Positions 17,067 to 48,174 of a stretch of DNA of 64,000 bases are shown in pieces. Where the stretch lies: positions 1 through 64,000 of IMG/VR virus record IMGVR_UViG_3300032246_001967; one strand, 5' to 3'. Each line of letters opens with the position of its first letter. Within the stretch, counting starts at the first letter, position 1. The notes beneath the pieces were generated by a model. The model was not told the DNA's origin. It made no database searches and saw only the letters and a list, made by a program, of their open reading frames with translations. The translations under genes and the position numbers were made by a program. This DNA comes from a virus.

Positions 17067-17543
17067 ATGAATGAATGGTTTTCACAAACAGATAGTGACA
17101 GCGGGTTATTAACTAAAAAAACATATTCCTCAATTGAGGATTTCCCAGAAAATACCTTTGGTTTTATTTATATTGTAAAACATAGACCATCAGGTATGTC
17201 TTATATTGGAAAAAAAGTTCTTTACTATAACGTAAAGAAAAAACTAACAAAAAAGGAAATAGCAGAACAAACAGGACCAGGCAGGAAGTCATCCATAAAA
17301 ATGGTAGTAAAAGAATCAGACTGGAAAACTTATTATGGATCTGCTAAACCAATTTTAGAACTCATTAAGGATGGTAAACAAGAGGAATTTACCCGTGAGA
17401 TATTACAATTGGTTCCTAATAAAAAACTTCTTACTTACTATGAATGTAAGTATTTATTTACATATAATGTATTGGAACAACCTGAAGGTTATTTTAATGA
17501 TAACATTTTAGGCAAGTTCTTTTCAAAAGATTTTTTACTTTAA
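17067..17543 (+). CDS. GIY-YIG endonuclease (stand-alone catalytic domain)
   Basis: GFIYIV...SYIGKK, YYGS, FTREIL, E and YFNDNI motifs. Confidence 0.75.
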   Translation: MNEWFSQTDSDSGLLTKKTYSSIEDFPENTFGFIYIVKHRPSGMSYIGKKVLYYNVKKKLTKKEIAEQTGPGRKSSIKMVVKESDWKTYYGSAKPILELIKDGKQEEFTREILQLVPNKKLLTYYECKYLFTYNVLEQPEGYFNDNILGKFFSKDFLL

Positions 17544-17577
17544 TTTTTTTTATTATATTTATAACAAATTAACAATT

Positions 17578-17943
17578 ATGAAAAGACAAATACTTTCTGA
17601 AGAATTCCAGCGTATGCAAAAACTAGCTGGTATAATTACTGAGTCTGAAGATTCTTTTGGTCCTAATAGCATTTCTACATTTGCTAATGAACATTTTGAT
17701 GAAATTCAAAATATGTTTGGTAAACTTCGTGGTGGTAAATTTGAAGGTTTTACAAACAATAGAGGTATTGAAGTAGCATTTATTGGTACTGATGAAGATG
17801 ATGGGATGGATATATCTTTTGATCCTAAATTTGAAGAGATGTCAGACATATATAATGATATAGAACCAGTTGAAATAGCTGGTAAAACAGTTTATGTAAA
17901 TGATTATCTTAATCATAATTTAGATAATGAAGATGAAGATTAA
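17578..17943 (+). CDS. Acidic protein with scaffold-like RMQKLAGI leader; putative internal head protein
   Basis: MKRQILSEEFQRMQKLAGIITE versus scaffold C-terminus RWQKLAGIK. Confidence 0.6.
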   Translation: MKRQILSEEFQRMQKLAGIITESEDSFGPNSISTFANEHFDEIQNMFGKLRGGKFEGFTNNRGIEVAFIGTDEDDGMDISFDPKFEEMSDIYNDIEPVEIAGKTVYVNDYLNHNLDNEDED

Positions 17944-17966: not shown

Positions 17967-17994
17967 AAGCTTGGTTCGCCAAGCTTTCTTTTTT
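17967..17994 (+). terminator. Rho-independent terminator overlapping a TTGG-N19-TATATT promoter
   Basis: AAGCTTGG-TTCG-CCAAGCTT plus T-run; TTGG at 17971, TATATT at 17994. Confidence 0.8.
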
Positions 17995-18022: not shown

Positions 18023-18631
18023 TTGATGGATAAAAAAACTAATATATATTACTTGCATAATGGTGATAATATTCCTTTTTATATAGGAAAAACAGTTCAA
18101 AACCCATCAAAACGATTAAATAATCATAAAAAAGTTTTTGGAAATAATACATTATTAGAAGTTATAGATATAGTTGAAAATAATAATTGGTTATTTTGGG
18201 AAAAACATTATATTTCTTTATTTAAATCTTGGGGTTTTAATCTAGAAAATAAAAATGAAGGTGGAGGAGGATGTATAACTCATGAAGTATCAGAATCTGC
18301 TAGAGAAAAAATAAGTAAAACTCATAAAAATCTTAAAAAACCATTTACTGAGTCTCATAAAATAAACCATCAAAAGTCTTATGAGAACAGAAATGTAACT
18401 TGGGGAAATAAAATATCAGAAGGATTAAAAGGTAGAAAAATAACATGGGAACAAGGAAATGTAGGAAAACCATCTTCACCAATCAACCAATATGATTTAG
18501 AGGGAAATTTTATTAAAAAATGGGATAATATAAAAGATCCTTCTTTAATTTATAAATGTTATATAAGTGGTTGTCTTAAAGGAAGGCAAAAAACAGCCGG
18601 AGGTTATATTTGGAAATATGCAAATAAATGA
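18023..18631 (+). CDS. GIY-YIG homing endonuclease with NUMOD-type C-terminus
   Basis: IYYL...FYIGKT, R..NH, EKHYI, LENKNEGG; QYDLEGNFIKKW...TAGGYIWKY. Confidence 0.85.
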   Translation: MMDKKTNIYYLHNGDNIPFYIGKTVQNPSKRLNNHKKVFGNNTLLEVIDIVENNNWLFWEKHYISLFKSWGFNLENKNEGGGGCITHEVSESAREKISKTHKNLKKPFTESHKINHQKSYENRNVTWGNKISEGLKGRKITWEQGNVGKPSSPINQYDLEGNFIKKWDNIKDPSLIYKCYISGCLKGRQKTAGGYIWKYANK

Positions 18632-20354: not shown

Positions 20355-21113
20355 ATGATTGGACTGGTCTCTTTATTAAAAGAAATACAAGGTAAACCTA
20401 AAGCTATTTTTATGGCAGGTCCAGCAGGATCAGGGAAATCATTTATTGCTTCTAAATTAATTCCTTCAAATTTTAATATTATTAATAGTGATGACACTTA
20501 TGAGGAATTACTTAAAGCAACTGGTTTAGGATTAAAACAAAAAGATTTTACTCCAGACCAATTATCTCAGGCCGCTAAATTACAAACTGTAGCTAGAAAA
20601 GAAACAGATAAAAAGTATCAGGAACTTACTAAAAATTTACAAAATGTAGTTATTGATGGTACAGGTGCTGCTACTAAACCTTTATTAAAGAAAAAAGAAG
20701 AGTTAGAATCATTAGGTTATGATACGTTTATGGTTATGGCTTACGTTCCTGTATTAGTTTCATTAGAACGTAATATGCAGCGAGAAAGAAGCTTAATGCC
20801 AGGTATTGTGCTTCGAACTTGGCGTGATGTAAATAAAAATATAGACACATATAAACAAGCTTTTGATGATAGTATCGTAATTGTGAATACAAGCGATAAT
20901 AAAGATTTAAATGTATTTTCAAAAGATAAATTACAAAAATATTTTGAACAATCCAAAGCAGTTGGTAAACCAAAAACACCTGAAGAACAACAAAAAGCAC
21001 AAGCAGAAAGAGACCAATTGATATCTGATATTGAAAAAATGTCGGTTAAGTTTCCTACTACTGATACATTAGAACAAGCAAAAACAAAAATAACTAACTT
21101 TATAAACAAATGA
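20355..21113 (+). CDS. P-loop kinase, zeta-toxin/AAA_33-like, with LLKE leader
   Basis: AGPAGSGKS, INSDD, VIDGTG, SLERNMQRER. Confidence 0.8.
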   Translation: MIGLVSLLKEIQGKPKAIFMAGPAGSGKSFIASKLIPSNFNIINSDDTYEELLKATGLGLKQKDFTPDQLSQAAKLQTVARKETDKKYQELTKNLQNVVIDGTGAATKPLLKKKEELESLGYDTFMVMAYVPVLVSLERNMQRERSLMPGIVLRTWRDVNKNIDTYKQAFDDSIVIVNTSDNKDLNVFSKDKLQKYFEQSKAVGKPKTPEEQQKAQAERDQLISDIEKMSVKFPTTDTLEQAKTKITNFINK

Positions 21114-21475
21114 AATTATTAGATTTATTAAACGAAATAGAAGAAGCAGAAAAAACTCATCTTGAACCAGTTGAAGAAGTTTACAAACCAATAGATGAAA
21201 TTGGTAAATTCTTTGTAGTTAAAAAACCTAAAAAAGGTATGACTAAAGAAGACCTTATGTATGAAGCAACTATCTTTGATAATATTATCCCTGAAGAAAC
21301 TCAAGGTGTATATAAACAAAAATCTGATGCTTCTAGAATAGCAACTGAAGCTTTTAAAGCGTATGAAGCTCAATTAGAAGAAATGGAATCAGCAATGAAT
21401 GATTTCCGTTCTGCTAAAAAAGATATTGAGGAAAAGAAAAAGGTTGCTAAAGAAAAAATAATGAAATTAAGATAA
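21110..21475 (+). CDS. Hypothetical protein with MKLLDLLNE leader
   Basis: Coupled ORF, K/E-rich. Confidence 0.6.
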   Translation: MKLLDLLNEIEEAEKTHLEPVEEVYKPIDEIGKFFVVKKPKKGMTKEDLMYEATIFDNIIPEETQGVYKQKSDASRIATEAFKAYEAQLEEMESAMNDFRSAKKDIEEKKKVAKEKIMKLR

Positions 21476-24072
21476 TGTCTGAAATAACAGAATCTTTATT
21501 AAAAGAACTGTTAGATGAGCCAATAACAGTAGCCATTTATGGTGGTGGTTTTAAACCTCCTACCAAAGGTCATTTTCTTGTAGTTGAAAAAGCATTACAA
21601 GAATTCCCTGAAATAGATGAATTAAAAATTTTTGTAGGTGGAGGAGTTAGAGATGGTATTACTCAAGATGAATCTATTAAAGTATGGGAAATTTATAAAC
21701 CCTACCTTTCAGATAAAATAGATATTGAAGCTTCTGTAGCCCCTGTTAAATCAGTTTTAGGATATGCTAAAGACCATCCTGAAGAAAAAGTTTATTGGAT
21801 TTTAGGCGCTCGTGAAGGTGATGAAGAAGATTTAAAAGATATTGAAAATAGAACTAAATCTTTATCTAAATACCCAAATATTGAAGTAAAAATTATCACT
21901 ACAGCTGGTGGTGTAAGTGGAACTAAAACCAGAGCCGCTATTAAATCAGGAAATAAAGAACAATTTTTCCATTTAATTCCAGACGTAAAAGAAAAAGAAG
22001 AAATCTGGAACATATTATCACCAGTAGTTAAAGAAGAATTAACTGAAGGTCGTTATGATTCATTAACTAGAACAGTTGTAAATGATATCTTAAACGATTG
22101 GAAATTACAATTTGATGGTGAAAATAGCGATTTAGAATTTGAAGAAGATTATGAAATGACAAATTCTAAAGGCGAACCTATTAATTTTGAACTTTATGCT
22201 GTTTTAAGAGTTAAAGAGACAAGTAATCATATTTACAAAGTAGATGGTGGTGCTGATCCTTTAAGAGATCCTGCTTATTTAGAAGTAAAATTTCAAGTAG
22301 ATCCTAGAGACTTACCTCAAAAATGGGAAGACATTTATATGGATTTAACTGATGTAGTTAGACATGAGATAGAACATATGACTCAACAGGGTACTAATGT
22401 TATTCCTTCTAAAAAAATGGAAGATGATGAGATACTAAGAAATCTTATTAATTTAAAATTATTACCTAAATCAGATTACTTCAGATTAGAACAAGAAATA
22501 GATGCTATGCTTCAAGGTATGTATTTGAAAGCTAAAAAATCTAAAACACCGTTTAAAGATGTAATCAATGATTATTTTGATAAAGTAAAATTATCAAAAA
22601 AAGATAGACAAGATATTTTATCTATTTGGAAAAATAGAGCTAAAGCTTTATCTTTACCTTTAAATGAAATTGGTGATGCAAGTGCTAAAGTATATCCTTT
22701 TACATCTAATAAATCACTTAAACAAATAATGGATAAGGCTATTGATTTTAAAAACCACGATCATATTTATCCATATTATTCTGATAATATTTTATATACA
22801 TTTGATACAGAAAAAGCCAGGTATCTTGTAGAAATATTAATCGACATGGAGATAATATCAAATACAAACTCAGCAAATAATCCTAACGAAAAATCAGAGC
22901 CATTATTTAATACAACATCCCAAGTTATTTTTACTACTGAAGGAAACCCAGGAGATGAAATTACTAATCTAAATGAACAGTACTCAGTTTTATCTACTAT
23001 TACTAAAATTATTTTAGAATTTGTTGAAGAATTTAATAAAAAAGGAGGAAATATAACCGCCGTTCAGATTGCTCCTAAAAGCGATAATGATAATTTATCT
23101 AAAATTGATTCAAAACGAGGAAAATTTTATACTGCTTATATTAAGAAGAATCTTTCAAAAGTTCCAGGATATAGTATTCGAGAAAAAACAAATTATGAGG
23201 GTCATGAATATATTGAAATCTATAAAACTAATAGTATAAATGAATTAGACAAGTCAAATCTCAAATCAATTAGTCAAAAAATTGATAGTTTACCTCAAGG
23301 TAAATTATTTGATGATGCTAAAAATATAGAAAGTATTTTTAATAAAAGTAAACATAGTTGGAACGAAACAATTGAATCTTTTGAAAAAAATAAAGATAAA
23401 GGTAAAGAACAATATGTTAATATAAACGATATTCATATTACTCAACCTAATATTCAGAGTAATAAGGTAAAAAATATGATTAAAAATATTGATAAATTAC
23501 CTGTTATTAATGTTGTTGAATTTCCTGATGGTGAAAAAGTGATTTATGATGGACACCATAGACTTATAGCTAATTGGGCTTTAGGGAATGAAAAAATCAA
23601 AGCAAACTTAGTTAAAATTGACAAATTAAAAGAAAATGATCCTTTTGGTATTAAGGCTTATGCTCGTGAATTAGTAAAAGAAACTTTTAAAAAAGATTGG
23701 AATCTTAAAGAAGGGATGTTATCTTTATCTAAGTATATGATTGACAATGGAATGAATATCAAACCATTGCCTAAAATAAAGGTTATAGATAACGACGCTG
23801 AAAATGCTTCTAATCTTTTGGGCAAAACAGCTTATTACAATCCTGCTGATAAGTCTATTACTTTATTCACTATGAATAGACACCCAAAAGATATTTTAAG
23901 ATCATTTGCCCACGAAATGGTTCATCATGAACAAAATTTAGATGGTCGATTAAATAATATAGCAACTCAAAATACAAACGAGGATGGTGATTTACCTGAA
24001 ATTGAAAGAGAGGCTTATGAAAAAGGAAATATGATGTTAAGAAATTGGGAGGATAATATAAAAAATGTATAA
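21475..24072 (+). CDS. Multidomain protein: HIGH-type nucleotidyltransferase, HExxH domain, unknown domain, ParB/Srx-like domain, second HExxH domain
   Basis: YGGGFKPPTKGH and SGTKTR; RHEIEH; IYDGHHRL; AHEMVH. Confidence 0.75.
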   Translation: MSEITESLLKELLDEPITVAIYGGGFKPPTKGHFLVVEKALQEFPEIDELKIFVGGGVRDGITQDESIKVWEIYKPYLSDKIDIEASVAPVKSVLGYAKDHPEEKVYWILGAREGDEEDLKDIENRTKSLSKYPNIEVKIITTAGGVSGTKTRAAIKSGNKEQFFHLIPDVKEKEEIWNILSPVVKEELTEGRYDSLTRTVVNDILNDWKLQFDGENSDLEFEEDYEMTNSKGEPINFELYAVLRVKETSNHIYKVDGGADPLRDPAYLEVKFQVDPRDLPQKWEDIYMDLTDVVRHEIEHMTQQGTNVIPSKKMEDDEILRNLINLKLLPKSDYFRLEQEIDAMLQGMYLKAKKSKTPFKDVINDYFDKVKLSKKDRQDILSIWKNRAKALSLPLNEIGDASAKVYPFTSNKSLKQIMDKAIDFKNHDHIYPYYSDNILYTFDTEKARYLVEILIDMEIISNTNSANNPNEKSEPLFNTTSQVIFTTEGNPGDEITNLNEQYSVLSTITKIILEFVEEFNKKGGNITAVQIAPKSDNDNLSKIDSKRGKFYTAYIKKNLSKVPGYSIREKTNYEGHEYIEIYKTNSINELDKSNLKSISQKIDSLPQGKLFDDAKNIESIFNKSKHSWNETIESFEKNKDKGKEQYVNINDIHITQPNIQSNKVKNMIKNIDKLPVINVVEFPDGEKVIYDGHHRLIANWALGNEKIKANLVKIDKLKENDPFGIKAYARELVKETFKKDWNLKEGMLSLSKYMIDNGMNIKPLPKIKVIDNDAENASNLLGKTAYYNPADKSITLFTMNRHPKDILRSFAHEMVHHEQNLDGRLNNIATQNTNEDGDLPEIEREAYEKGNMMLRNWEDNIKNV

Positions 24073-24607
24073 ATTTAAACTTACTAATACTTACAAACAA
24101 TTAAGAGAAGAAGAAACAACTACTCCGGAGCAAAAATATAAAATTTATTGCGATATGGATGGAGTATTATGTGATTTTGATGCTCGTTTTAAAAGTATTA
24201 ACCCAGAAAAATTATCACCATCTCAATATACAAACAAATATGGTGTTGATAAATTTTGGACAACAATTGACGCTGAAGGAGTTAAATTTTGGGTAGGAAT
24301 TAAATGGATGTCTGACGGTAAAGAATTATGGGATTATATTAAACAATATAACCCAACATTATTATCCGCGCCTTCAAGAGCCCCTTCATCACGTTTAGGA
24401 AAAAGATTATGGGTTAAAAACAACCTTCCAGGAACTCCATTAATTTTAGCATCAGCTGAAAAAAAACAGAATTATGCTAAAGGAAGCCATATACTTATAG
24501 ATGACCGACCAGACAATGTTAATCAATGGAAAAACAAAGGTGGGATTGGTATTTTACATATAAACACAGCAGACACAATTAAACAATTACAAAATTTAGG
24601 ATTATAA
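24065..24607 (+). CDS. HAD-family 5'(3')-deoxyribonucleotidase-like phosphatase
   Basis: CDMDGVLCDF, LLSAP, K, LIDDRPDN. Confidence 0.85.
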   Translation: MYKFKLTNTYKQLREEETTTPEQKYKIYCDMDGVLCDFDARFKSINPEKLSPSQYTNKYGVDKFWTTIDAEGVKFWVGIKWMSDGKELWDYIKQYNPTLLSAPSRAPSSRLGKRLWVKNNLPGTPLILASAEKKQNYAKGSHILIDDRPDNVNQWKNKGGIGILHINTADTIKQLQNLGL

Positions 24608-28711: not shown

Positions 28712-28882
28712 ATGAACACAACAGAAATTTTTGAAAAAATTGAGATGTTATTTGAAGAATTTAAAGCAGAACATGCTAAAACTACAAAAGCAGCTCACGG
28801 TCGTGCTAGAAAAACTTTAGGTGAAATCAAGAAATTGGTTACCGAGTACAGAAAAGCATCTATCGAGGAAGATAAAAAATAA
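28712..28882 (+). CDS. Histone H1-like (Hc1-family) small DNA-binding protein, 56 aa
   Basis: Not in the ORF track. MNTTEIFEKIEMLFEEFKAEHAKTTKAAHGRARKTLGEIKKLVTEYRKASIEEDKK*; KAAxxRARK...K...EYRK matches the Hc1 N-terminal signature. Confidence 0.75.
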   Translation: MNTTEIFEKIEMLFEEFKAEHAKTTKAAHGRARKTLGEIKKLVTEYRKASIEEDKK

Positions 28883-30324
28883 TGACCAAAAAAGATCTTC
28901 AAAAGGTATTAAAGGAGTTCTTACTGAAAAGTAAGAGCTCTCTTATTACTGAAGAAACTTTAACACAAGCACAATTAGACAAAAGACAGGATTACTTAAA
29001 AGATTTAATGAAACAAAAAAGTAATCTTGTTAAAAGATATAAAGGCGAAGCTGAAAAAGTAGCCTATGGTCGCGCAACAAACATGGCTAAAAAAGCAGTA
29101 TCAGAAATGAATAAACAAAAATTAAAAGAATTAGTTAAATCTTCATTAATGAAGGAAGACAATAATGAATCATCAGCATTATTTAATGATCTTGAACAAA
29201 AACTAAAATCCCACGATTGGTATTACTATATGTCTGATGATAATAGAGCATACTCAAAGGGTTCAGCCCAACAATCTGAAATTCGTAAAATAATTAAAGA
29301 TTTAGAAAGTATGGGTCAAGGTCAAGAAGCTAAAGATTTATATAACAAATATGCTCCTTATAGAGAAGGTGGTCCTGATCTAAGAATGAAAGAAGATAAA
29401 AAATCATTTCCTGATTTAACAGGTGATGGTAAAGTAACTAAAGCAGATATTTTAAAAGGTAGAGGAATTGATTTAGATGAAGATATTGATTTAGGTCATC
29501 AAGATAATGAACCTCATATGGTTAAAGCTGAACTTTACCAAATTGGTAAATACGCTATGGAATTATATAGTTGGTTAGAAGAAATGGAAGAAACAGGTGG
29601 TGAATATGATTTTCCTGCTTGGTGGCAAGCAAAAATAACTACTGCCAAAGAAAACATTTCAGGAGCTAAACATTATTTAGAGTTTGAATTACAAGAACCT
29701 CAAATTGATGCTACTGTAGATGCTATGACTGGTGAAGAACCTCATGAAGGTGAACCAATGATGGAAGATGAAATTGGTAAAGATGAAGAATTAGCTGGAA
29801 GATTATATAAAATGAAAAATTTTGTTCAACCTGCTTTCTTTAAGAAAATCAGAGGTTTAATTAATTCTGGTGATTTAGAAACAGCTGAATTTTTTATTAA
29901 AAGAATGGAACCAGCAGCCGCTAAAAACGATTTAGAAATGGCTAAATTAAAAGGTGATTTAGAAGATATTGACGCTGTAATTGCTCAACGTAAAAGAGAA
30001 AAACAATTTGCCAATGTGTTCGCTGAAACTATTTCTAAAAAATTAAAAGAAACTTCATACCCTTGGGATAAATGTATTGCTGATAGAAAAGAAGAAGGTA
30101 AATCTGAAGAAGACGCTAAAAAAATATGTGGTTCTATTAAGGCAAAAAATAATGAAGGTATTGAAGAAAAGAAATTAACTACTGCTGAAAAAAATAAAAA
30201 AGAAGAAATAGTTAAATCTTTGAAAAAATCAGGAATGAAAAAAGATCCTAAAATGTATGCTATTGCTACTGCTAAAGCAGAAAAAGTTGCAGAAAATATA
30301 GTTAAAAAATTAAAAAATGACTAA
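28882..30324 (+). CDS. Modular K/E-rich polyprotein-like hypothetical protein
   Basis: Many short modules bounded by ITE, VSE, MKE, LDE, MME, LKE; includes DLTGDGKVTKAD. Confidence 0.6.
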   Translation: MTKKDLQKVLKEFLLKSKSSLITEETLTQAQLDKRQDYLKDLMKQKSNLVKRYKGEAEKVAYGRATNMAKKAVSEMNKQKLKELVKSSLMKEDNNESSALFNDLEQKLKSHDWYYYMSDDNRAYSKGSAQQSEIRKIIKDLESMGQGQEAKDLYNKYAPYREGGPDLRMKEDKKSFPDLTGDGKVTKADILKGRGIDLDEDIDLGHQDNEPHMVKAELYQIGKYAMELYSWLEEMEETGGEYDFPAWWQAKITTAKENISGAKHYLEFELQEPQIDATVDAMTGEEPHEGEPMMEDEIGKDEELAGRLYKMKNFVQPAFFKKIRGLINSGDLETAEFFIKRMEPAAAKNDLEMAKLKGDLEDIDAVIAQRKREKQFANVFAETISKKLKETSYPWDKCIADRKEEGKSEEDAKKICGSIKAKNNEGIEEKKLTTAEKNKKEEIVKSLKKSGMKKDPKMYAIATAKAEKVAENIVKKLKND

Positions 30325-38263: not shown

Positions 38264-39841
38264 ATGAGTGAAAATGTAAACTTAAAAGATGTTATAAGAC
38301 AAGAGTACATAAAATGCTTGCAGGACCCTGCTCATTTTATGAAAAAATACTGTAACATCCAGCATCCTCAAAGAGGTAGAGTAATATTTAATCTGTATCC
38401 TTTCCAAGATAAAGTATTAAACCTTTGGAAGGATCATCCTTATTCTATTGTATTAAAATCTAGACAGTTAGGTATTTCTACATTAGCAGCAGGTTATTCT
38501 TTATGGTTAATGTTATTCCATAAAGATAAAAACGTACTTTGTATCGCGACTAAACAAGAAACTGCTCGTAACATGGTTACAAAAGTTAAGTTTATGTTCG
38601 ATAATTTACCTACTTGGCTTAAAATAGGAGCTGAGGAAAATAATAAATTATCATTACGATTAAGTAATGGTTCACAAATTAAAGCCACTTCAGCAAGTAG
38701 TGATGCGGGTCGATCAGAAGCCGTATCTTTACTAATTGTCGATGAGGCAGCGTTTATTGAACAAATTGGTGAGATTTGGGCTTCAGCACAACAAACATTA
38801 GCAACGGGTGGTGGAGCAATTGTGTTATCTACTCCTTATGGTACAGGTAACTGGTTTCATCAAACGTGGGTTAGAGCTGAATCAGGTGAAAATGATTTTT
38901 TACCTATTAAATTACCTTGGTATGTACATCCAGAACGAAATGAAGATTGGAGAAAACGTCAAGATGAATTATTAGGTGATCCTAGATTAGCAGCTCAAGA
39001 ATGTGATTGTGACTTTAATACATCAGGTGATGTAGTATTTTATCCTGAATGGACAGATTTTATTAGAGAAACAACACTTCAAGAACCAATAGAAAGAAGA
39101 GGAGCCGACCAAAATTTATGGGTATGGGAACCTGCAGACTATACAAGAGATTATATAGTAGTAGCAGACGTAGCTAGAGGTGATGGTAAGGATTTCTCAA
39201 CTTTTCATGTAATTGATATTGCAACTAATACACAAGTTGCAGAATATAAAGGGCAAATGTCGCCTAAAGAGTTTGGATACTTTTTAGTTGCTATTGCTAC
39301 TGAATATAATATGGCTCTATTAGTAATAGAAAATGCTTCTATTGGTTGGGCGGCTATTGAATCTGTGTTAGAAAGAGGATATCAGAACACCTATTATTCA
39401 CCTAAGAGTGATAATCTAACAGTTGATTCGTATTTTAATAAGTACGAAAATAGCGATAACGTAACGCCTGGTTTTACTATGTCATTAAGAACACGTCCTT
39501 TAGTAATAAATAAGTTTAGAGAATATGTCGGAGATCGCTCTGTGACTATTAAATCTAAACGTTTATTAGAAGAAATGAAAGTATTCGTTTGGAAAAATGG
39601 ACGTCCAGAAGCACAATCTGGTTATAATGATGATTTAGTTATGCCGTTTGGTATTGCTATGTATTTAAGAGACACATCATTAAAATTTAGACAACAAGCA
39701 CACGATTTATCAAGAGCCACTTTAAGTAATTTTTCAAAAGGAAATACTAGTTTTATAGGAGCCTATAATGCTAATAATGTTCCTAATCCTTATTCCATTG
39801 AAACAAACAGCGGAGTAGAGGACATTAAGTGGTTATTGTAA
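38264..39841 (+). CDS. terL: Terminase large subunit (gp17-like)
   Basis: LYPFQ, KSRQLGIS Walker A, LIVDEAAF Walker B, STPYG, ADVARG.DFS, NDDLVM. Confidence 0.95.
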   Translation: MSENVNLKDVIRQEYIKCLQDPAHFMKKYCNIQHPQRGRVIFNLYPFQDKVLNLWKDHPYSIVLKSRQLGISTLAAGYSLWLMLFHKDKNVLCIATKQETARNMVTKVKFMFDNLPTWLKIGAEENNKLSLRLSNGSQIKATSASSDAGRSEAVSLLIVDEAAFIEQIGEIWASAQQTLATGGGAIVLSTPYGTGNWFHQTWVRAESGENDFLPIKLPWYVHPERNEDWRKRQDELLGDPRLAAQECDCDFNTSGDVVFYPEWTDFIRETTLQEPIERRGADQNLWVWEPADYTRDYIVVADVARGDGKDFSTFHVIDIATNTQVAEYKGQMSPKEFGYFLVAIATEYNMALLVIENASIGWAAIESVLERGYQNTYYSPKSDNLTVDSYFNKYENSDNVTPGFTMSLRTRPLVINKFREYVGDRSVTIKSKRLLEEMKVFVWKNGRPEAQSGYNDDLVMPFGIAMYLRDTSLKFRQQAHDLSRATLSNFSKGNTSFIGAYNANNVPNPYSIETNSGVEDIKWLL

Positions 39842-39859
39842 TATTTATAATATATTTAC

Positions 39860-41737
39860 ATGGCAAACACTAATTTATTCGCTCGTCTACAAAGACTATT
39901 CTCTACTGATGTTATTATCAGAAATCAAGGTGGAAATGAGCTTAAAGTACTAGACGTAGATAGCATCCAAAGATCAGGAGATGTAGCTACAAATTCCTTG
40001 ATGGATAGATATAATAGAATCTATTCACCTGCCGCTTCATCATTATACGGTCAGCAAGTTAATATTAATTATCAATACTTAAGAACCTTCATTTATTCAG
40101 ACTATGATATTATGGATAACGATGCAATTATTGCTTCTGCTCTTGATATCATTTCTGAAGAAGCTACTTTAAGAAATGAAATGGGTGAGGTATTACAAAT
40201 TAGATCTAACGACGAAGATATTCAACAAGTACTTTATAATTTATTTTATGATGTTTTAAATATTGAATTTAATCTATGGTCTTGGATTCGCCAAATGTGT
40301 AAATATGGTGATTTCTTTTTAAAATTAGAAATTGCTGAAAAATATGGTGTTTATAATGTAATTCCTTTTACTGCTTATCATATTGATAGACAGGAAAATT
40401 ATGATAAAGAACATCCAAACGCAGTAAGATTTAAATATTCTCCAGAAGGTATTTATGGTGGTAGTTCAGGTTACTATCCTACACCTAACATGACTGCTCA
40501 AAAAGATGAAAATTTTGTTTATTTTGAAAATTATGAAATGGCTCACTTCCGTTTAATGACGGATGTTAACTATTTACCTTATGGTAGAAGTTATTTAGAA
40601 CCAGCTCGTAGAATTTATAAACAATATGCTTTAATGGAAGATGCTATGTTAATTCATAGAATCTCACGTTCACCTGATAGACGTATTTTTTATATTAATG
40701 TTGGTTCTATTCCTCCTAATGAAGTAGAAAATTTCATGCAGAAAACTATTTCTACAATGAAACGTACTCCATTACAAGATAAACAAACTGGTGAGTATAA
40801 TTTAAAGTATAATATGCAGAACCTTATGGAAGATTTTTATATTCCAATTAGAGGTAATGATCAAACAACTAGAATTGATACTACTCCTGGTTTAGCTTAT
40901 GATGGTATTTCTGACGTTACTTATTTAAGAGATAAACTATTTGCTGCTTTAAAAGTACCTAAAGCGTTTATGGGTTATGATGAAAACTTACAAGGTAAAG
41001 CAACATTAGCAGCAGAAGATATTAGATTTGCTCGCACTATTGATAGATTACAACGTATTGTATTATCAGAATTATATAAAATCGCATTAGTACATTTATA
41101 TACTCAAGGTTACACTGCAGATAATTTAACTAATTTCGAATTATCATTAACTACTCCTTCTATTATTTACGACCAAGAACGTATTGCGTTAATGAAGGAA
41201 AAAATGGATTTAGCAGCCCAAATGATGGAAACCAAATTAATTTCATCAGATTGGATTTACGAAAATATATTCCATTTCAGTCAAGACCAGTATGAAGAAA
41301 TGAGAGATTTAATTGCACAAGACCAAAAACGTACTTTTAGATTTACTCAAATTGCTGAAGAAGGTAATGACCCAGTAGAAACAGGTAAATCTTATGGTAC
41401 ACCACATGATTTAGCTTCATTATATGGTAGAGGTAGATATTCAGCAAATGAATTACCTGATGGATATGATGAAAAAGCTCCTTTAGGTCGCCCTAAAGAA
41501 AAAGTATCAAATATTAATACTCAAGATAATCCATTTGGTAGAGATAGATTAGGTAGAAAAGATATGAAGGTGGATGATCAAGAAGGATATGGCAGACCTA
41601 AAAAAGATGTTTCTCCATTGGCCTTAGAAATAGTAGCTAAAAATAAAACCTTATTAGAATCTTTAGAAAAGAAAATTAATTTTAAAGAAACTGATGATAA
41701 GGAAATACTATTAGATGAATCTAAATTAAAGGAATAA
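39860..41737 (+). CDS. Portal protein (gp20-like)
   Basis: YGRSYLE, LMEDAMLIHRISRSPDRRIFYINVG, EDFYIP, ALKVP; follows terminase. Confidence 0.95.
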   Translation: MANTNLFARLQRLFSTDVIIRNQGGNELKVLDVDSIQRSGDVATNSLMDRYNRIYSPAASSLYGQQVNINYQYLRTFIYSDYDIMDNDAIIASALDIISEEATLRNEMGEVLQIRSNDEDIQQVLYNLFYDVLNIEFNLWSWIRQMCKYGDFFLKLEIAEKYGVYNVIPFTAYHIDRQENYDKEHPNAVRFKYSPEGIYGGSSGYYPTPNMTAQKDENFVYFENYEMAHFRLMTDVNYLPYGRSYLEPARRIYKQYALMEDAMLIHRISRSPDRRIFYINVGSIPPNEVENFMQKTISTMKRTPLQDKQTGEYNLKYNMQNLMEDFYIPIRGNDQTTRIDTTPGLAYDGISDVTYLRDKLFAALKVPKAFMGYDENLQGKATLAAEDIRFARTIDRLQRIVLSELYKIALVHLYTQGYTADNLTNFELSLTTPSIIYDQERIALMKEKMDLAAQMMETKLISSDWIYENIFHFSQDQYEEMRDLIAQDQKRTFRFTQIAEEGNDPVETGKSYGTPHDLASLYGRGRYSANELPDGYDEKAPLGRPKEKVSNINTQDNPFGRDRLGRKDMKVDDQEGYGRPKKDVSPLALEIVAKNKTLLESLEKKINFKETDDKEILLDESKLKE

Positions 41738-44582: not shown

Positions 44583-45188
44583 ATGAAACAAGTATTAATT
44601 GAAACCATACCGTTTAATGTATCACGTACACAATTACATGAGGGTTTAAAAGCTCCTTCGGGTAATCCTTTAGTTGAAGGTATTCTAGCTACAGCTGAAG
44701 TAAAAAATGGTAATGGTCGTTATTATCCAAAAGAGTTATGGGAAAGAGAAATTGACAAATACCAACAAATGGTTAGAGAAAATAGAGCAACAGGTGAATT
44801 AGATCATCCTGAGTCTTCTATTATATCTTTAAAAAACGTATCTCATATTATTAGAGAATGTTGGTGGGACGGAGATAAAGTAATGGGTAAAATAGAAATT
44901 TTACCTACTGTATCTGGTAATATTTTAAAAGCACTTATTGATAATAATGTAACAGTAGGTGTATCATCTCGTGGAATGGGTTCATTAAAACAAATTGGTG
45001 AAGGAACATTAGAAGTACAAGATGATTTTGAATTATTATGCTGGGACTTTGTATCAACCCCATCTAATCCAGGTTCATATATGACGTTAGTTAGAGAAGG
45101 TATTGAAAAACCTACAAATGATTATTCTAAAGTTAATTCTTTATTAACAGAAATCCTTTGTGCTAACGGAACCTGTCCAATATTTTGA
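44583..45188 (+). CDS. Prohead protease (gp21-like)
   Basis: NGNGRYYP, GELDHP, VSH, GVSSRGMGS, DFVSTPS. Confidence 0.95.
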   Translation: MKQVLIETIPFNVSRTQLHEGLKAPSGNPLVEGILATAEVKNGNGRYYPKELWEREIDKYQQMVRENRATGELDHPESSIISLKNVSHIIRECWWDGDKVMGKIEILPTVSGNILKALIDNNVTVGVSSRGMGSLKQIGEGTLEVQDDFELLCWDFVSTPSNPGSYMTLVREGIEKPTNDYSKVNSLLTEILCANGTCPIF

Positions 45189-45246: not shown

Positions 45247-45392
45247 GCGTTTTTGAAATATTTTGATATACGTATACCCGACAATATACGATTTTCTATA
45301 TCGTATTAAGATTTAAAATATCTATTACGCTTCGAGTAATCTATAATAAGCGTACTTCCAACAAAAATTATTTGAGGACAAAAAACAAACAA

Positions 45393-46466
45393 ATGGCAAA
45401 CAGAGACTTATTAAAAGAAGCCATTGCCGATGCTAAAGCTGTTAAGGAAACAGCCATCGCCAATGCAAAAGCTGCTCTTGAAGAAGCTTTTACTCCCATG
45501 CTTCGTGAAAAATTAGCTGCTAAAATAGCTGAAATGGATGAAATGGAAGAAGAAGTTGATTTAAAAGAAGCAGACGAAATGGAAGAAGGTCTTGAAGAAA
45601 CTTACGACAAAACTGATGAAGCTAAAGACATGGATAACATGGAAGAAGCTGAAAAAGTAGATGAAGTAGATCTTGAAGAACTTCTAAGAGAATTAGATGA
45701 ATTAGAAGAAGGTGAAGCGACAGGTGAAGAAGGATTTGGTAAATTTTCTTCAGACGGAACCGAAGGTTTCGATGGTGGAGACGGAGACACACAAGAAAAA
45801 GCATTAGATGAAGCTGAAGGTGAAGAAGATTATGAAGATAAAGATGCAGATGGTGTTGAAGATTCAGAAGATGAAGAAATTGACATCGAAAACATGGACG
45901 AAGATGATCTTAAAAAATTCATTGAAAGTGTAATCGCTGACATGGTTGAATCTGGCGAATTAGAAGCTGGCCATGAAGGTGAAGAAGGTGAAGAGGGAGA
46001 AGAAGGTGAAGAAGATGAAGAAGGTGAAGAAGAAATGAGTATGGATATGATGGCTGAGGTTAAGAAAGCTAAAAAAGATGCTGAAGAATCTAAAAAAGCT
46101 AAAGAAAAAGCTGAAAAAGAGCTTAAAGAAGCTTATGATGCTTTAGAAGCAATTAAAACTGAACTTAACGAAGTTAACTTATTCAACGCTAAATTACTTT
46201 ACACTAACAAAATCTTCAAAGCTAAGAATTTGAACGAATCACAAAAAGTAAAAGTATTAGCTGCTTTTGATAAAGCGGCTAGTGTAAAAGAAGCTAAATT
46301 AGTATTTGAAACTCTATCAGCTGGTTTCAATGAAAAGAAAGCTCCTATGAATGAATCATTAATCCGTGGTGGTGCTTCAAAAGCTGCAGGTGTAGCTACT
46401 AAAAAGCCAATTATGGAAGCTAATGATCAGGTTGCAAGATGGCAAAAATTAGCTGGTATCAAATAA
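45393..46466 (+). CDS. Prohead scaffold protein (gp22-like); likely start ATG 45393
   Basis: Very acidic coiled coil between the protease and MCP; ends RWQKLAGIK. Confidence 0.85.
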   Translation: MANRDLLKEAIADAKAVKETAIANAKAALEEAFTPMLREKLAAKIAEMDEMEEEVDLKEADEMEEGLEETYDKTDEAKDMDNMEEAEKVDEVDLEELLRELDELEEGEATGEEGFGKFSSDGTEGFDGGDGDTQEKALDEAEGEEDYEDKDADGVEDSEDEEIDIENMDEDDLKKFIESVIADMVESGELEAGHEGEEGEEGEEGEEDEEGEEEMSMDMMAEVKKAKKDAEESKKAKEKAEKELKEAYDALEAIKTELNEVNLFNAKLLYTNKIFKAKNLNESQKVKVLAAFDKAASVKEAKLVFETLSAGFNEKKAPMNESLIRGGASKAAGVATKKPIMEANDQVARWQKLAGIK

Positions 46467-46494: not shown

Positions 46495-48174
46495 ATGTCA
46501 CAAGTACAACAACTTTTAGAAAGCGCAGCAGGTTCTTGGAAGAGCATGCAAAGCGACGCAGCCAAATTATCCGGCAAATGGATTAAAACTGGCTTATTAG
46601 AAGGTTTAGGTGAGATTGATAAGAATAACATGTCAATCTTATTAGAAAACCAAGCAAAACAGTTAGTAATGGAATTTAACCAAATCTCTACTAACTCTTA
46701 CTTTACTAGCGGTACTCAAGGTGAAAACTGGGCTGGTATTGCTTTACCATTGGTTCGTAAGGTATTCGGAACTATCGTAGCGAAAGAGTTCGTTTCAGTT
46801 CAACCTATGAACATGCCTTCAGGTCTAGTGTTCTTCTTAGATTTCCAATATGGTAACACTAAGAACCCATTTGCAACTGGTGATTCTTTATATGGTCAAA
46901 GAAACGCTTCTGGTCAGTTCCCATTTGCTACTACTGCCCCTTCAGGTGCTTTATATGGCGCTGGTAAGTTTACTTACTCAACTAACCAAACTTCATCTAC
47001 AGTAGTAACAACTTCAGGTTCTAACATTAGCTCAGCTTCTTTTGCTGATGTTAACTTTGATTCTAATTTCTCAGCTTCTGTAGCTGCTGGTAACATCAAG
47101 AAAATTGCTATCTCTAGTTCAAGAGCTACTAACTTAGTTTCTATGGATTTAGATGCGGTTCGTGGTTTCATCATTACTTCAGGTTCAGTTACTGTTGGTG
47201 CTAACTTACCTCAGTTCTTTACTTATGATTACACTAACGATACTGTAAACTTCTTCGTTTCTGCTTCTACTGCTCAAATCGGTGGTGCTTCTGGTGTTAA
47301 CACTTACACAGTGTTCTACAACAAGTTAACTACTGACCAGTACAGAGGTGACTTTGAAGAATCAAGTTCATACTCAACTCCTAACTCTTTAAGTACTTCA
47401 ACTATCATTATCCCTGAGATCAATGTTAAAATGCAGTCACAAGCTATCACAGCTAAGACTAAGAAGTTAAAAGCTGTTTGGACTCCTGAGTTTGCACAAG
47501 ACTTAGCTGCTTACCAAAACATCGATGCTGAAGCTGAATTAACTAACATCATGAGTGAGTACATTTCAATGGAAATTGATCTTGAAATCTTAGATATGTT
47601 AATTGAAGATGCTGCTGCTGGTACTGAATATTGGTCAGTTGTTAACAACACTGTAATTACTGGTTCTGGTGCTGGAGCTGTTCCTACAACTTTAGCTTCT
47701 GGTTACTACAATACTCAAGGTCAATGGTTCCAAACTTTAGGAACTAAGATCCAAAAGTTAAGTAACAGAATCCACCAGTTAACTTTAAGAGGTGGTGCAA
47801 ACTTCATCGTAACTTCTCCTACAGTTGCTACTGTTCTTGAATCTATCCCAGGATTTGCTTCTACTTCAAACGGTGAAGCTGAACAAATGGAATATGCATT
47901 CGGTGTACAGAAAGTTGGTAGCGTAAACGGTCGTTACAAGGTTTATAAAAACCCTTACTTAACTGAAAACTTAATCTTAATGGGTTACAAAGGATCTCAA
48001 TTCCTTGAGACTGGTGCTGTATTTGCTCCTTATATCCCAATGATTATGACTCCATTAGTGTACGATCCTGATACCTTCACTCCACGTAAAGGTTTATTAA
48101 CTCGTTACGCTAAGAAGATGTTACGTCCTGAATTCTATGCTAAGATCTATGTTAATGGTTTAAACACCATCTAA
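46495..48174 (+). CDS. Major capsid protein (gp23-like)
   Basis: LLENQ, LPLVRKVF, VSVQPM..PSGLVF, KLKAVWTPEFAQDL, APYIP, TPRKGLLTRY. Confidence 0.97.
   Translation: MSQVQQLLESAAGSWKSMQSDAAKLSGKWIKTGLLEGLGEIDKNNMSILLENQAKQLVMEFNQISTNSYFTSGTQGENWAGIALPLVRKVFGTIVAKEFVSVQPMNMPSGLVFFLDFQYGNTKNPFATGDSLYGQRNASGQFPFATTAPSGALYGAGKFTYSTNQTSSTVVTTSGSNISSASFADVNFDSNFSASVAAGNIKKIAISSSRATNLVSMDLDAVRGFIITSGSVTVGANLPQFFTYDYTNDTVNFFVSASTAQIGGASGVNTYTVFYNKLTTDQYRGDFEESSSYSTPNSLSTSTIIIPEINVKMQSQAITAKTKKLKAVWTPEFAQDLAAYQNIDAEAELTNIMSEYISMEIDLEILDMLIEDAAAGTEYWSVVNNTVITGSGAGAVPTTLASGYYNTQGQWFQTLGTKIQKLSNRIHQLTLRGGANFIVTSPTVATVLESIPGFASTSNGEAEQMEYAFGVQKVGSVNGRYKVYKNPYLTENLILMGYKGSQFLETGAVFAPYIPMIMTPLVYDPDTFTPRKGLLTRYAKKMLRPEFYAKIYVNGLNTI

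Follow-up and report, generated by a model that had tools for sequence, protein, structure and literature searches.

Phages and conjugative elements encode polyvalent proteins, in which two to fifteen disparate domains are carried by one polypeptide (Iyer, Burroughs, Anand, de Souza, Aravind 2017, PMC5512222). In phage T4, the prohead protease gp21 cuts after Glu at L/I-X-E and the first 10 residues of the internal protein IPIII form a capsid-targeting sequence, whereas giant-phage relatives of gp21 cut after S/A-X-E (PMC9026906). We examined 64,000 nucleotides (nt) of viral DNA (positions 1 to 64,000 of the IMG/VR record IMGVR_UViG_3300032246_001967), a stretch that we call the window. It contains, at 21475..24072 on the + strand, a gene predicted to encode a protein 865 amino acids (aa) long. 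A sequence-only reading of the window had described this protein as a polyprotein of five domains with an L/I-x-E site at every junction, and had proposed that the domains are cargo released by the head protease. The open reading frame (ORF) and every motif quoted in that reading were found where it had placed them. Here we compare the protein with its homologues and report that the joints between modules fall on a hydrophobic-x-Glu motif across a shuffled family.

The predicted protein resembles polyvalent proteins in several respects. Unrelated domains are joined in one phage polypeptide (here five modules and a spacer), architectural diversity is high, the modules include zincin-like and ParB-like ones with a weak ART-like module in homologues, and separation into pieces has been proposed for polyvalent proteins too (PMC5512222). 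It differs from them in being smaller (485-1346 aa among the 120 homologues listed) and in being anchored by an N-terminal nucleotidyltransferase with a HIGH motif. Its gene belongs to an operon for replication and nucleotide metabolism and is not placed among late, packaging or conjugation genes, and the same is true in Flavobacterium phage vB_FspM_immuto, the sole cultured relative found. No Pfam match to an LPD or MPTase domain was obtained here, the only link being an ESM Atlas lead to LPD23 for the second module (module B; score 0.88), which we treat as a lead only. The joints of the present protein have a conserved motif that matches the head protease, whereas PMC5512222 proposes embedded MPTases and describes no joint motif in the sections covered.

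The likeness to the T4 proteins IPI-III and Alt consists of an S77 prohead protease and an L/I-x-Glu motif, which in T4 is cut after Glu (PMC9026906, PMC3012670). A short N-terminal leader ending in hydrophobic-x-Glu is also shared with T4 internal proteins, a likeness of type and not one drawn from comparing leader sequences, as is a diverse and fast-changing repertoire of cargo, packaging being only predicted here. In T4 every cargo protein is a separate one that has a leader to itself, whereas here as many as a dozen modules share one leader and one ORF with internal sites. In the giant phages phiKZ, 201phi2-1 and SPN3US, gp21-related proteases likewise cleave numerous head proteins after a Glu, with multiple cuts in some of them (PMC9026906, PMC5694885, PMC10052503). 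The motif there is S/A-x-Glu, unlike the one found here, the substrates are structural or inner-body proteins from separate genes, and the sections covered of these three papers do not describe enzyme modules being shuffled combinatorially at the sites. Polyproteins of RNA viruses resemble the present case in that one translation product has short conserved sites between functional units. They differ from it in that this is a tailed phage with double-stranded DNA (dsDNA), its modules are accessory ones that are exchanged freely and do not form a fixed replication set, and the gene for the likely protease lies at another place in the genome. In the literature searched, supplements excepted, we found no description of module shuffling at joints of the prohead-protease type. 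The sections covered of the far-T4 paper (PMC4360716) contain nothing on the polyprotein gene, and no virion proteomics of phage immuto was found in the sources as far as they were covered.

Shuffled homologues and the sequence at their joints

A search of 5.8 billion proteins gave 2158 matches at E<=0.001 among 8000 candidates scored. We used the best 120, a set that is biased toward proteins sharing modules with the query. When the query was compared with 119 homologues by BLAST, the alignments broke at query residues ~187-191, ~395-398, ~590-597, ~718-722 and ~746. Cutting the homologues at supported breakpoints and clustering the pieces yielded ~25 recurrent module families in 93 distinct architectures. 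It had been set beforehand as a test that the first and last domains should be kept and the middle should vary. The first module (A) is present in 119 of the 120 homologues and the last (E) in 109, and the 93 architectures reflect a variable middle. The modules had also been expected to be gained at linkers, and relatives do gain, lose, duplicate and reorder modules at the joints.

Module B occurs in 91 of the 120 homologues, a C-like module in 86, a 21-aa spacer peptide in 50, each of three modules of about 95-113 aa in 42-48, a zinc ribbon in 32 and a HAD/NT5C module in eight. Module D is rare, being present in three. The 26-residue NDPFG peptide of the query forms a separate cluster found in at least 20 homologues. 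The ART-like module mentioned above is a match to Tox-ART-HYD1 of 20.4 bits in homologue P0006, under the cut-off of 25. No P-loop kinase module was found among the first 240 proteins, and no scaffold-tail tag in the 120 homologues. A 21-residue spacer, ASDPQAGTALPYGSGFAPVKE, is bounded by joints in P0005, P0123 and other homologues and is absent from the window protein.

Because the segmentation moved a breakpoint to the nearest motif if one lay within 5 aa, a logo of the joints shows Glu at P1 by construction; 6,304 of the 30,717 breakpoint observations were not within 5 aa of a site. Breakpoints were also scored with no snapping. Among right-hand breakpoints, 334 of 1056 ended exactly on [LIVFM]xE, compared with 1.9% for random positions. 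Under a strict definition of a sharp breakpoint (at least 9 of the last 15 columns identical and at most 2 of the next 15), 322 of 596 ended exactly on the motif where 1.9% was expected, and 411 had a site ending 0-4 residues further on. The final identical residue was Glu in 360 of these 596 against a background of 8.4%, and 110 of the 224 distinct 8-residue contexts ended in the motif. These counts are not independent events because the homologues are kin.

Module B was followed in a wider set. A profile of this module, searched against 1.84 billion representatives clustered at 50% identity, matched 813 proteins at E<=1e-3, and a less redundant set of 145 proteins was analysed (from 150 listed as the best of the 813). 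The N-terminus of B was complete in 117 copies, five of which start the protein. The motif [LIVFM]xE lies right before the first B residue in 108 of the other 112, one or two residues before it in one and in neither position in three. The C-terminus was complete in 107 copies. The 56 that are protein-terminal stop at LSLP-x-F/L/I and none of them ends in the motif, whereas 42 of the 51 internal copies have a motif within 6 residues after LSLP and nine are without it. Because x-Glu is present before a following module and dropped when B is last, it belongs to the joint rather than to either fold. The expectation that breakpoints of homologues lie at xxE sites was thus borne out by both the sharp breakpoints and the B copies that do not start a protein.

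The DNA at the joint varies. We used 14 of 16 B-start contexts, leaving out two loci in which an apparent TGA at the joint proved to be an out-of-frame artefact, and found eight different 9-mers, with seven codons at P3 and five at P2. Because the joint DNA is not fixed, the constraint is on the peptide. The conserved positions of the joint are P3, which is aliphatic, and P1, which is Glu (by construction of the logo), and P1' varies among G, V, A, E, N, I and L.

Breaks of the same kind occur in a second modular family, that of a 480-aa ORF at 28882..30324 in the window, whose 120 matches vary in length from 333 to 817 aa. Of 447 sharp breakpoints in this family, 103 coincide with hydrophobic-x-Glu, whereas the sites have a density of 3.1%, and HExxH is present in none of the 120 proteins. 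A protease acting in trans is favoured because this family breaks at the motif without any HExxH. Taken together, the comparisons of sequences support well the conclusion that the joints are functional, joint-specific peptide signals, and that they are cleavage sites is the natural reading, which we consider probable.

The motif also closes a short leader at the N-terminus. In the polyprotein family, a site ends at residue 7-16 in 118 of 120 proteins compared with 17% of internal 16-aa windows, a count that is not independent because the leaders are homologous. The leader is about 10-15 aa long, ends in hydrophobic-x-Glu and is portable. It stands before a HAD module in P0056 and directly before the zinc ribbon, with no module A, in P0154, P0192 and P0212. 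Stand-alone B proteins, read by eye, included ~13 with a 9-14-aa leader ending in the motif right before GRYD. Leaders defined as two hydrophobic residues followed by any residue and a Glu, with their end at residue 8-15, are carried by 13 of the 70 ORFs of the window, where 3.1 are expected (binomial p 1.2e-5). Among the 13 are the scaffold, the polyprotein and the two ORFs next to it on the upstream side, and such leaders are also found on proteins encoded beside head genes. The major capsid proteins of five relatives have motif sites at residues 9, 36, 51 and 60 of their N-terminal stretch.

Modules of the 865-residue protein

The polyprotein is rich in Lys, Glu, Ile and Leu and contains 15 [LI]xE sites, where 13.6 are expected from its composition. 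Because this count is at chance level, a site near each junction of one sequence proves nothing. What stands of the claim of an L/I-x-E site at every junction is the position of the sites, which is backed by breakpoints and linkers; the count alone is no more than chance. A whole-protein AlphaFold2 model had a mean predicted local distance difference test (pLDDT) score of 64.9. Stretches with pLDDT below 50 include 187-199, 390-403, 586-621 and 717-741, which correspond to the junctions named in the sequence-only reading. Boundary prediction had been its suggested check, and in this model the joints fall in low-confidence linkers. Module B had a pLDDT of ~30 and is poorly modelled because the full-length alignment is shallow there. 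Foldseek with the whole-protein model returned matches for module A only, Pfam and PHROGs gave only sub-threshold or weak matches to the whole window protein, and no Pfam peptidase model was over its cut-off for the polyprotein or the homologues scanned.

All modules are encoded on the + strand. The predicted leader comprises aa 1-11 (21475..21507) and ends in LKE, with a second site, LDE, at aa 13-15. Module A (aa 12-187; 21508..22035) is predicted to be a HIGH-motif nucleotidyltransferase with a NadD/NMNAT/PPAT-like fold. The motifs TKGH (aa 30-33) and SGTKTR (aa 148-153) agree with Foldseek matches to NadD, NMNAT and PPAT chains (best 5deo_A, E 7.9e-6, prob 1.00), in keeping with the first domain as originally assigned. 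The Pfam model CTP_transf_like gave 16.9 bits, under its cut-off of 21. The sequence of module A gives no basis for assigning a substrate such as nicotinamide mononucleotide, and Nampt (PF04095), as a possible partner, was not found in the 128-kb record, which is 78% complete. The joint between A and B (VKEELTE, aa 185-191; 22027..22047) consists of two adjacent hydrophobic-x-Glu sites, VKE (aa 185-187) and LTE (aa 189-191). In homologues VKE is the end of module A, and LTE is the site right before module B.

Module B (aa 192-398; 22048..22668) is an HExxH domain without known family that is also found as a stand-alone protein. Its HExxH is HEIEH at aa 297, within an RHEIEH that is invariant in the module B alignment, and it ends in LSLPLNE, the PLNE being at aa 395-398 and ending at nt 22668. 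Profile positions 44-87 of module B (about 22180-22310 in the window) gave repeated weak matches to one repeat of a designed beta-trefoil (Symfoil). We rejected this likeness as probably spurious, the best E of 2.2e-6 being a sum over three repeats. Module C (aa 399-590; 22669..23244) ends in SINE (aa 587-590, nt 23244). It had been called unknown; its position held, and it can now be described as DUF6934-like because homologues in its cluster match that family (PF22028 is over cut-off in P0038 and P0026).

Module D (aa 591-720; 23245..23634) ends in KLKE (aa 717-720, nt 23634). It had been described as ParB/Srx-like; it has the DGHHR motif (aa 692-696) and matches PHROG 1033 (ParB-like, E 2.1e-5) and PHROG 33277 (E 0.0086), and searches for a Pfam ParBc match and for a PDB sequence match found none. 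The 26-aa spacer peptide (23635..23712), which begins NDPFG, lies between KLKE and NLKE (aa 743-746, nt 23712). Module E (aa 747-865; 23713..24069) is predicted to be a minimal zincin-like domain with HEMVH at aa 813 and a conserved downstream Glu, so that both HExxH motifs of the earlier description are confirmed. HExxH and the downstream Glu (E98/E100) are invariant or nearly so in the module E alignment. Modelled alone, module E has a pLDDT of 85.1 and a predicted compact zincin-like fold. Its structural neighbours in VIA-align are almost all zincins (Wss1 Z 6.9, PprI 6.5, SPRTN 6.4, BepA 6.0, ArdC 5.0), with Z values of 5-7 that are middling. Foldseek gave no match for module E at E<=1e-3, and a PDB sequence and profile search was empty.

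Gene neighbourhood and the head module

The window is low in guanine-cytosine content (about 26-36%) and all of its ORFs of at least 100 aa except one are on the + strand. The polyprotein gene shares 1 nt with the ORF upstream of it and 8 nt with the gene downstream and, as these overlaps indicate, is translationally coupled to both. The downstream gene (24065..24607, +) is predicted to encode an NT5C/HAD 5'-nucleotidase. NT5C is fused as the last polyprotein module in P0074, P0085, P0090, P0092 and P0099, and the first 15 residues encoded by the window gene, ending in LRE, align with the spacer preceding the fused copy. On this sequence evidence the NT5C gene is part of the same system as the polyprotein, and its relation to the fused copies looks like the splitting or fusion of a gene precisely at a joint.

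Upstream are a 121-aa ORF (21110-21475) that begins MKLLDLLNE and a Zeta_toxin/AAA_33-like P-loop kinase (20355-21113) that begins with a 10-aa leader, MIGLVSLLKE. These two leaders are of the type seen on stand-alone module-B proteins. The same run of genes contains a GIY-YIG endonuclease, a primase and an exonuclease together with the kinase and NT5C. Phage immuto has the same order of primase, exonuclease, one intervening ORF, polyprotein (gp088, 907 aa) and NT5C. Two genes of the GIY-YIG (SegE-like) homing-endonuclease type, at 17067-17543 and 18026-18631, lie on either side of a small gene at 17578. We rejected the PHROG label 'NAD synthetase' for the first of them, which is contradicted by Pfam SegE_GIY-YIG (E 2.2e-24).

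The window also contains a T4-type head module, with the large terminase at 38264, the portal at 39860, an acidic scaffold-like ORF at 45372/45393..46466 and the major head protein at 46495. The head protease that had been presumed is present as a gp21-type prohead protease gene (Peptidase_S77; 44583..45188, +; PHROG 207, E 2.3e-56), in which a match to PF03420 at 44664-45086 reaches 106.3 bits against a cut-off of 27. It is the candidate cutting enzyme. An S77 protease is present in the window and in five of five large related contigs, which are close kin and so are not independent evidence. The window protease has LIE ending at residue 7; T4 gp21 has a similar site near its N-terminus (PMC9026906).

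The sequence TATTTATA lies 11-34 nt 5' of the ATG in 19 window ORFs that are mostly structural (portal, head-region ORFs, tail genes), with examples on the + strand at 17556, 28124, 32023, 39842, 43685, 54645 and 60894. It is a candidate late-promoter-like element. The T4-type late promoter TATAAATA has 36 matches on either strand of the window where 23.3 are expected. We rejected it as a + strand promoter, this not being the enriched form; it is the reverse orientation, TATTTATA, that precedes genes.

Probable processing of the chain and what it would mean

In the reading that we favour, a polyvalent-type polyprotein would be diced at its joints by the S77 prohead protease and its pieces would serve as capsid cargo. 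We give this full reading an even chance. The leader would be followed in one chain by independently folding modules A, B, C and D, the 26-aa spacer and module E, with exposed linkers that would each end in [LIVFM]-x-Glu. These joints would be cut after Glu by the phage's own gp21-type protease, with its specificity for L/I-x-Glu. The leader would act like the T4 capsid-targeting sequence, loading the chain into the prohead, where it would be diced and from which the pieces would be delivered with the DNA. Both the head protease as cutter and the modules as capsid cargo are steps that we infer from sequence.

Several observations, in addition to the kinship behind the breakpoint counts, weigh against this reading. 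The polyprotein gene sits in a tightly overlapping replication and nucleotide-metabolism operon, away from the head genes, which weakens the capsid-cargo part. That part is weakened further, though it is still possible, because TATTTATA is not directly 5' of the polyprotein gene and a terminator-like hairpin (17967-17986) lies between this gene and the closest upstream copy of TATTTATA. Both module A and the NT5C module resemble enzymes of metabolism, which would be of use in the cytoplasm. The leader is missing from several A-first proteins of the diverse set, which begin with the fold itself, and from those stand-alone B proteins that begin MGRYD. An HExxH module is present in all 120 homologues, and two or more are present in 87, so an embedded peptidase could be the cutter.

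Self-processing of a polyvalent protein, with the embedded zincin modules (E, perhaps B) cutting the joints in cis or trans and the head protease uninvolved, would account for this constant presence of HExxH. It is in line with the argument that embedded MPTases release the domains of polyvalent proteins (PMC5512222). The near-invariance of the HExxH and downstream Glu in module E, its zincin-like model with Wss1, PprI/IrrE, SPRTN and ArdC among the best matches, and an operon context suited to a cytoplasmic protein also point that way. However, the Z values of module E are middling and no Pfam peptidase model is over cut-off. The specificity of zincins is usually driven by P1', unlike the pattern at the joints. 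An aliphatic P3 and Glu at P1 with a variable P1' is instead the gp21-type signature (PMC9026906). In both the scaffold and the major capsid protein, the N-terminal stretch ends in the joint motif as well, and that motif marks the breakpoints of the ORF 28882 family, which has no HExxH. We regard self-processing as unlikely.

Lower still in probability we place an uncut chain, in which a true multidomain enzyme would use hydrophobic-x-Glu as a linker grammar marking permissive joints for in-frame recombination. The motif is common in a proteome rich in Lys, Glu, Ile and Leu, as the near-chance count in the window protein illustrates. The varied DNA at the joint argues against this explanation, as do the loss of x-Glu when B is last and its return when a module follows, the use of the same motif to close N-terminal leaders and its occurrence in common among unrelated folds. 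The explanation that we find least probable keeps the S77 protease as the cutter and omits packaging: the chain would be intact early and diced late in the cytoplasm as a timing switch, with the leader as a propeptide. It fits an operon of replication and nucleotide-metabolism genes, and it is a live alternative because prohead proteases can reach non-capsid substrates, T4-type enzymes having been reported to cleave a cytosolic host CD-NTase late in infection (preprint PMC12991175). The similar leaders of the scaffold and of proteins whose genes lie beside head genes speak for packaging instead, and T4 uses such leaders to direct proteins to the core of the prohead (PMC9026906).

Returning to the favoured reading of a chain diced by the head protease for packaging, we also put forward a broader and more tentative extension of it. 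T4-related aquatic phages may possess plug-and-play cargo built from a single leader that addresses the capsid and a universal hydrophobic-x-Glu joint recognised by the head protease. Any enzyme module could then be spliced into one gene, and the product would be loaded into the prohead, diced and injected as a cocktail of early enzymes (nucleotidyltransferase, zincins, ParB-like domain, ART-like domain and nucleotidase), and the architectures would record an arms race waged by module swapping.

The original observation is confirmed by sequence comparison, and the comparison with relatives strengthens it far beyond what a single sequence can offer. Because a cultured relative exists in Flavobacterium phage vB_FspM_immuto, the idea is directly testable. 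If the joints are cut, they would constitute a readable grammar, a leader followed by modules each closed by hydrophobic-x-Glu, for expressing and swapping accessory enzymes from one gene of a dsDNA phage. If the favoured reading is true, it would join polyvalent proteins with T4-type capsid targeting and gp21 processing, subjects kept apart so far in the literature as covered here. The boundaries of hundreds of uncharacterised phage domains would then be readable straight from sequence, and these phages would offer a natural blueprint for packing several proteins into a capsid.

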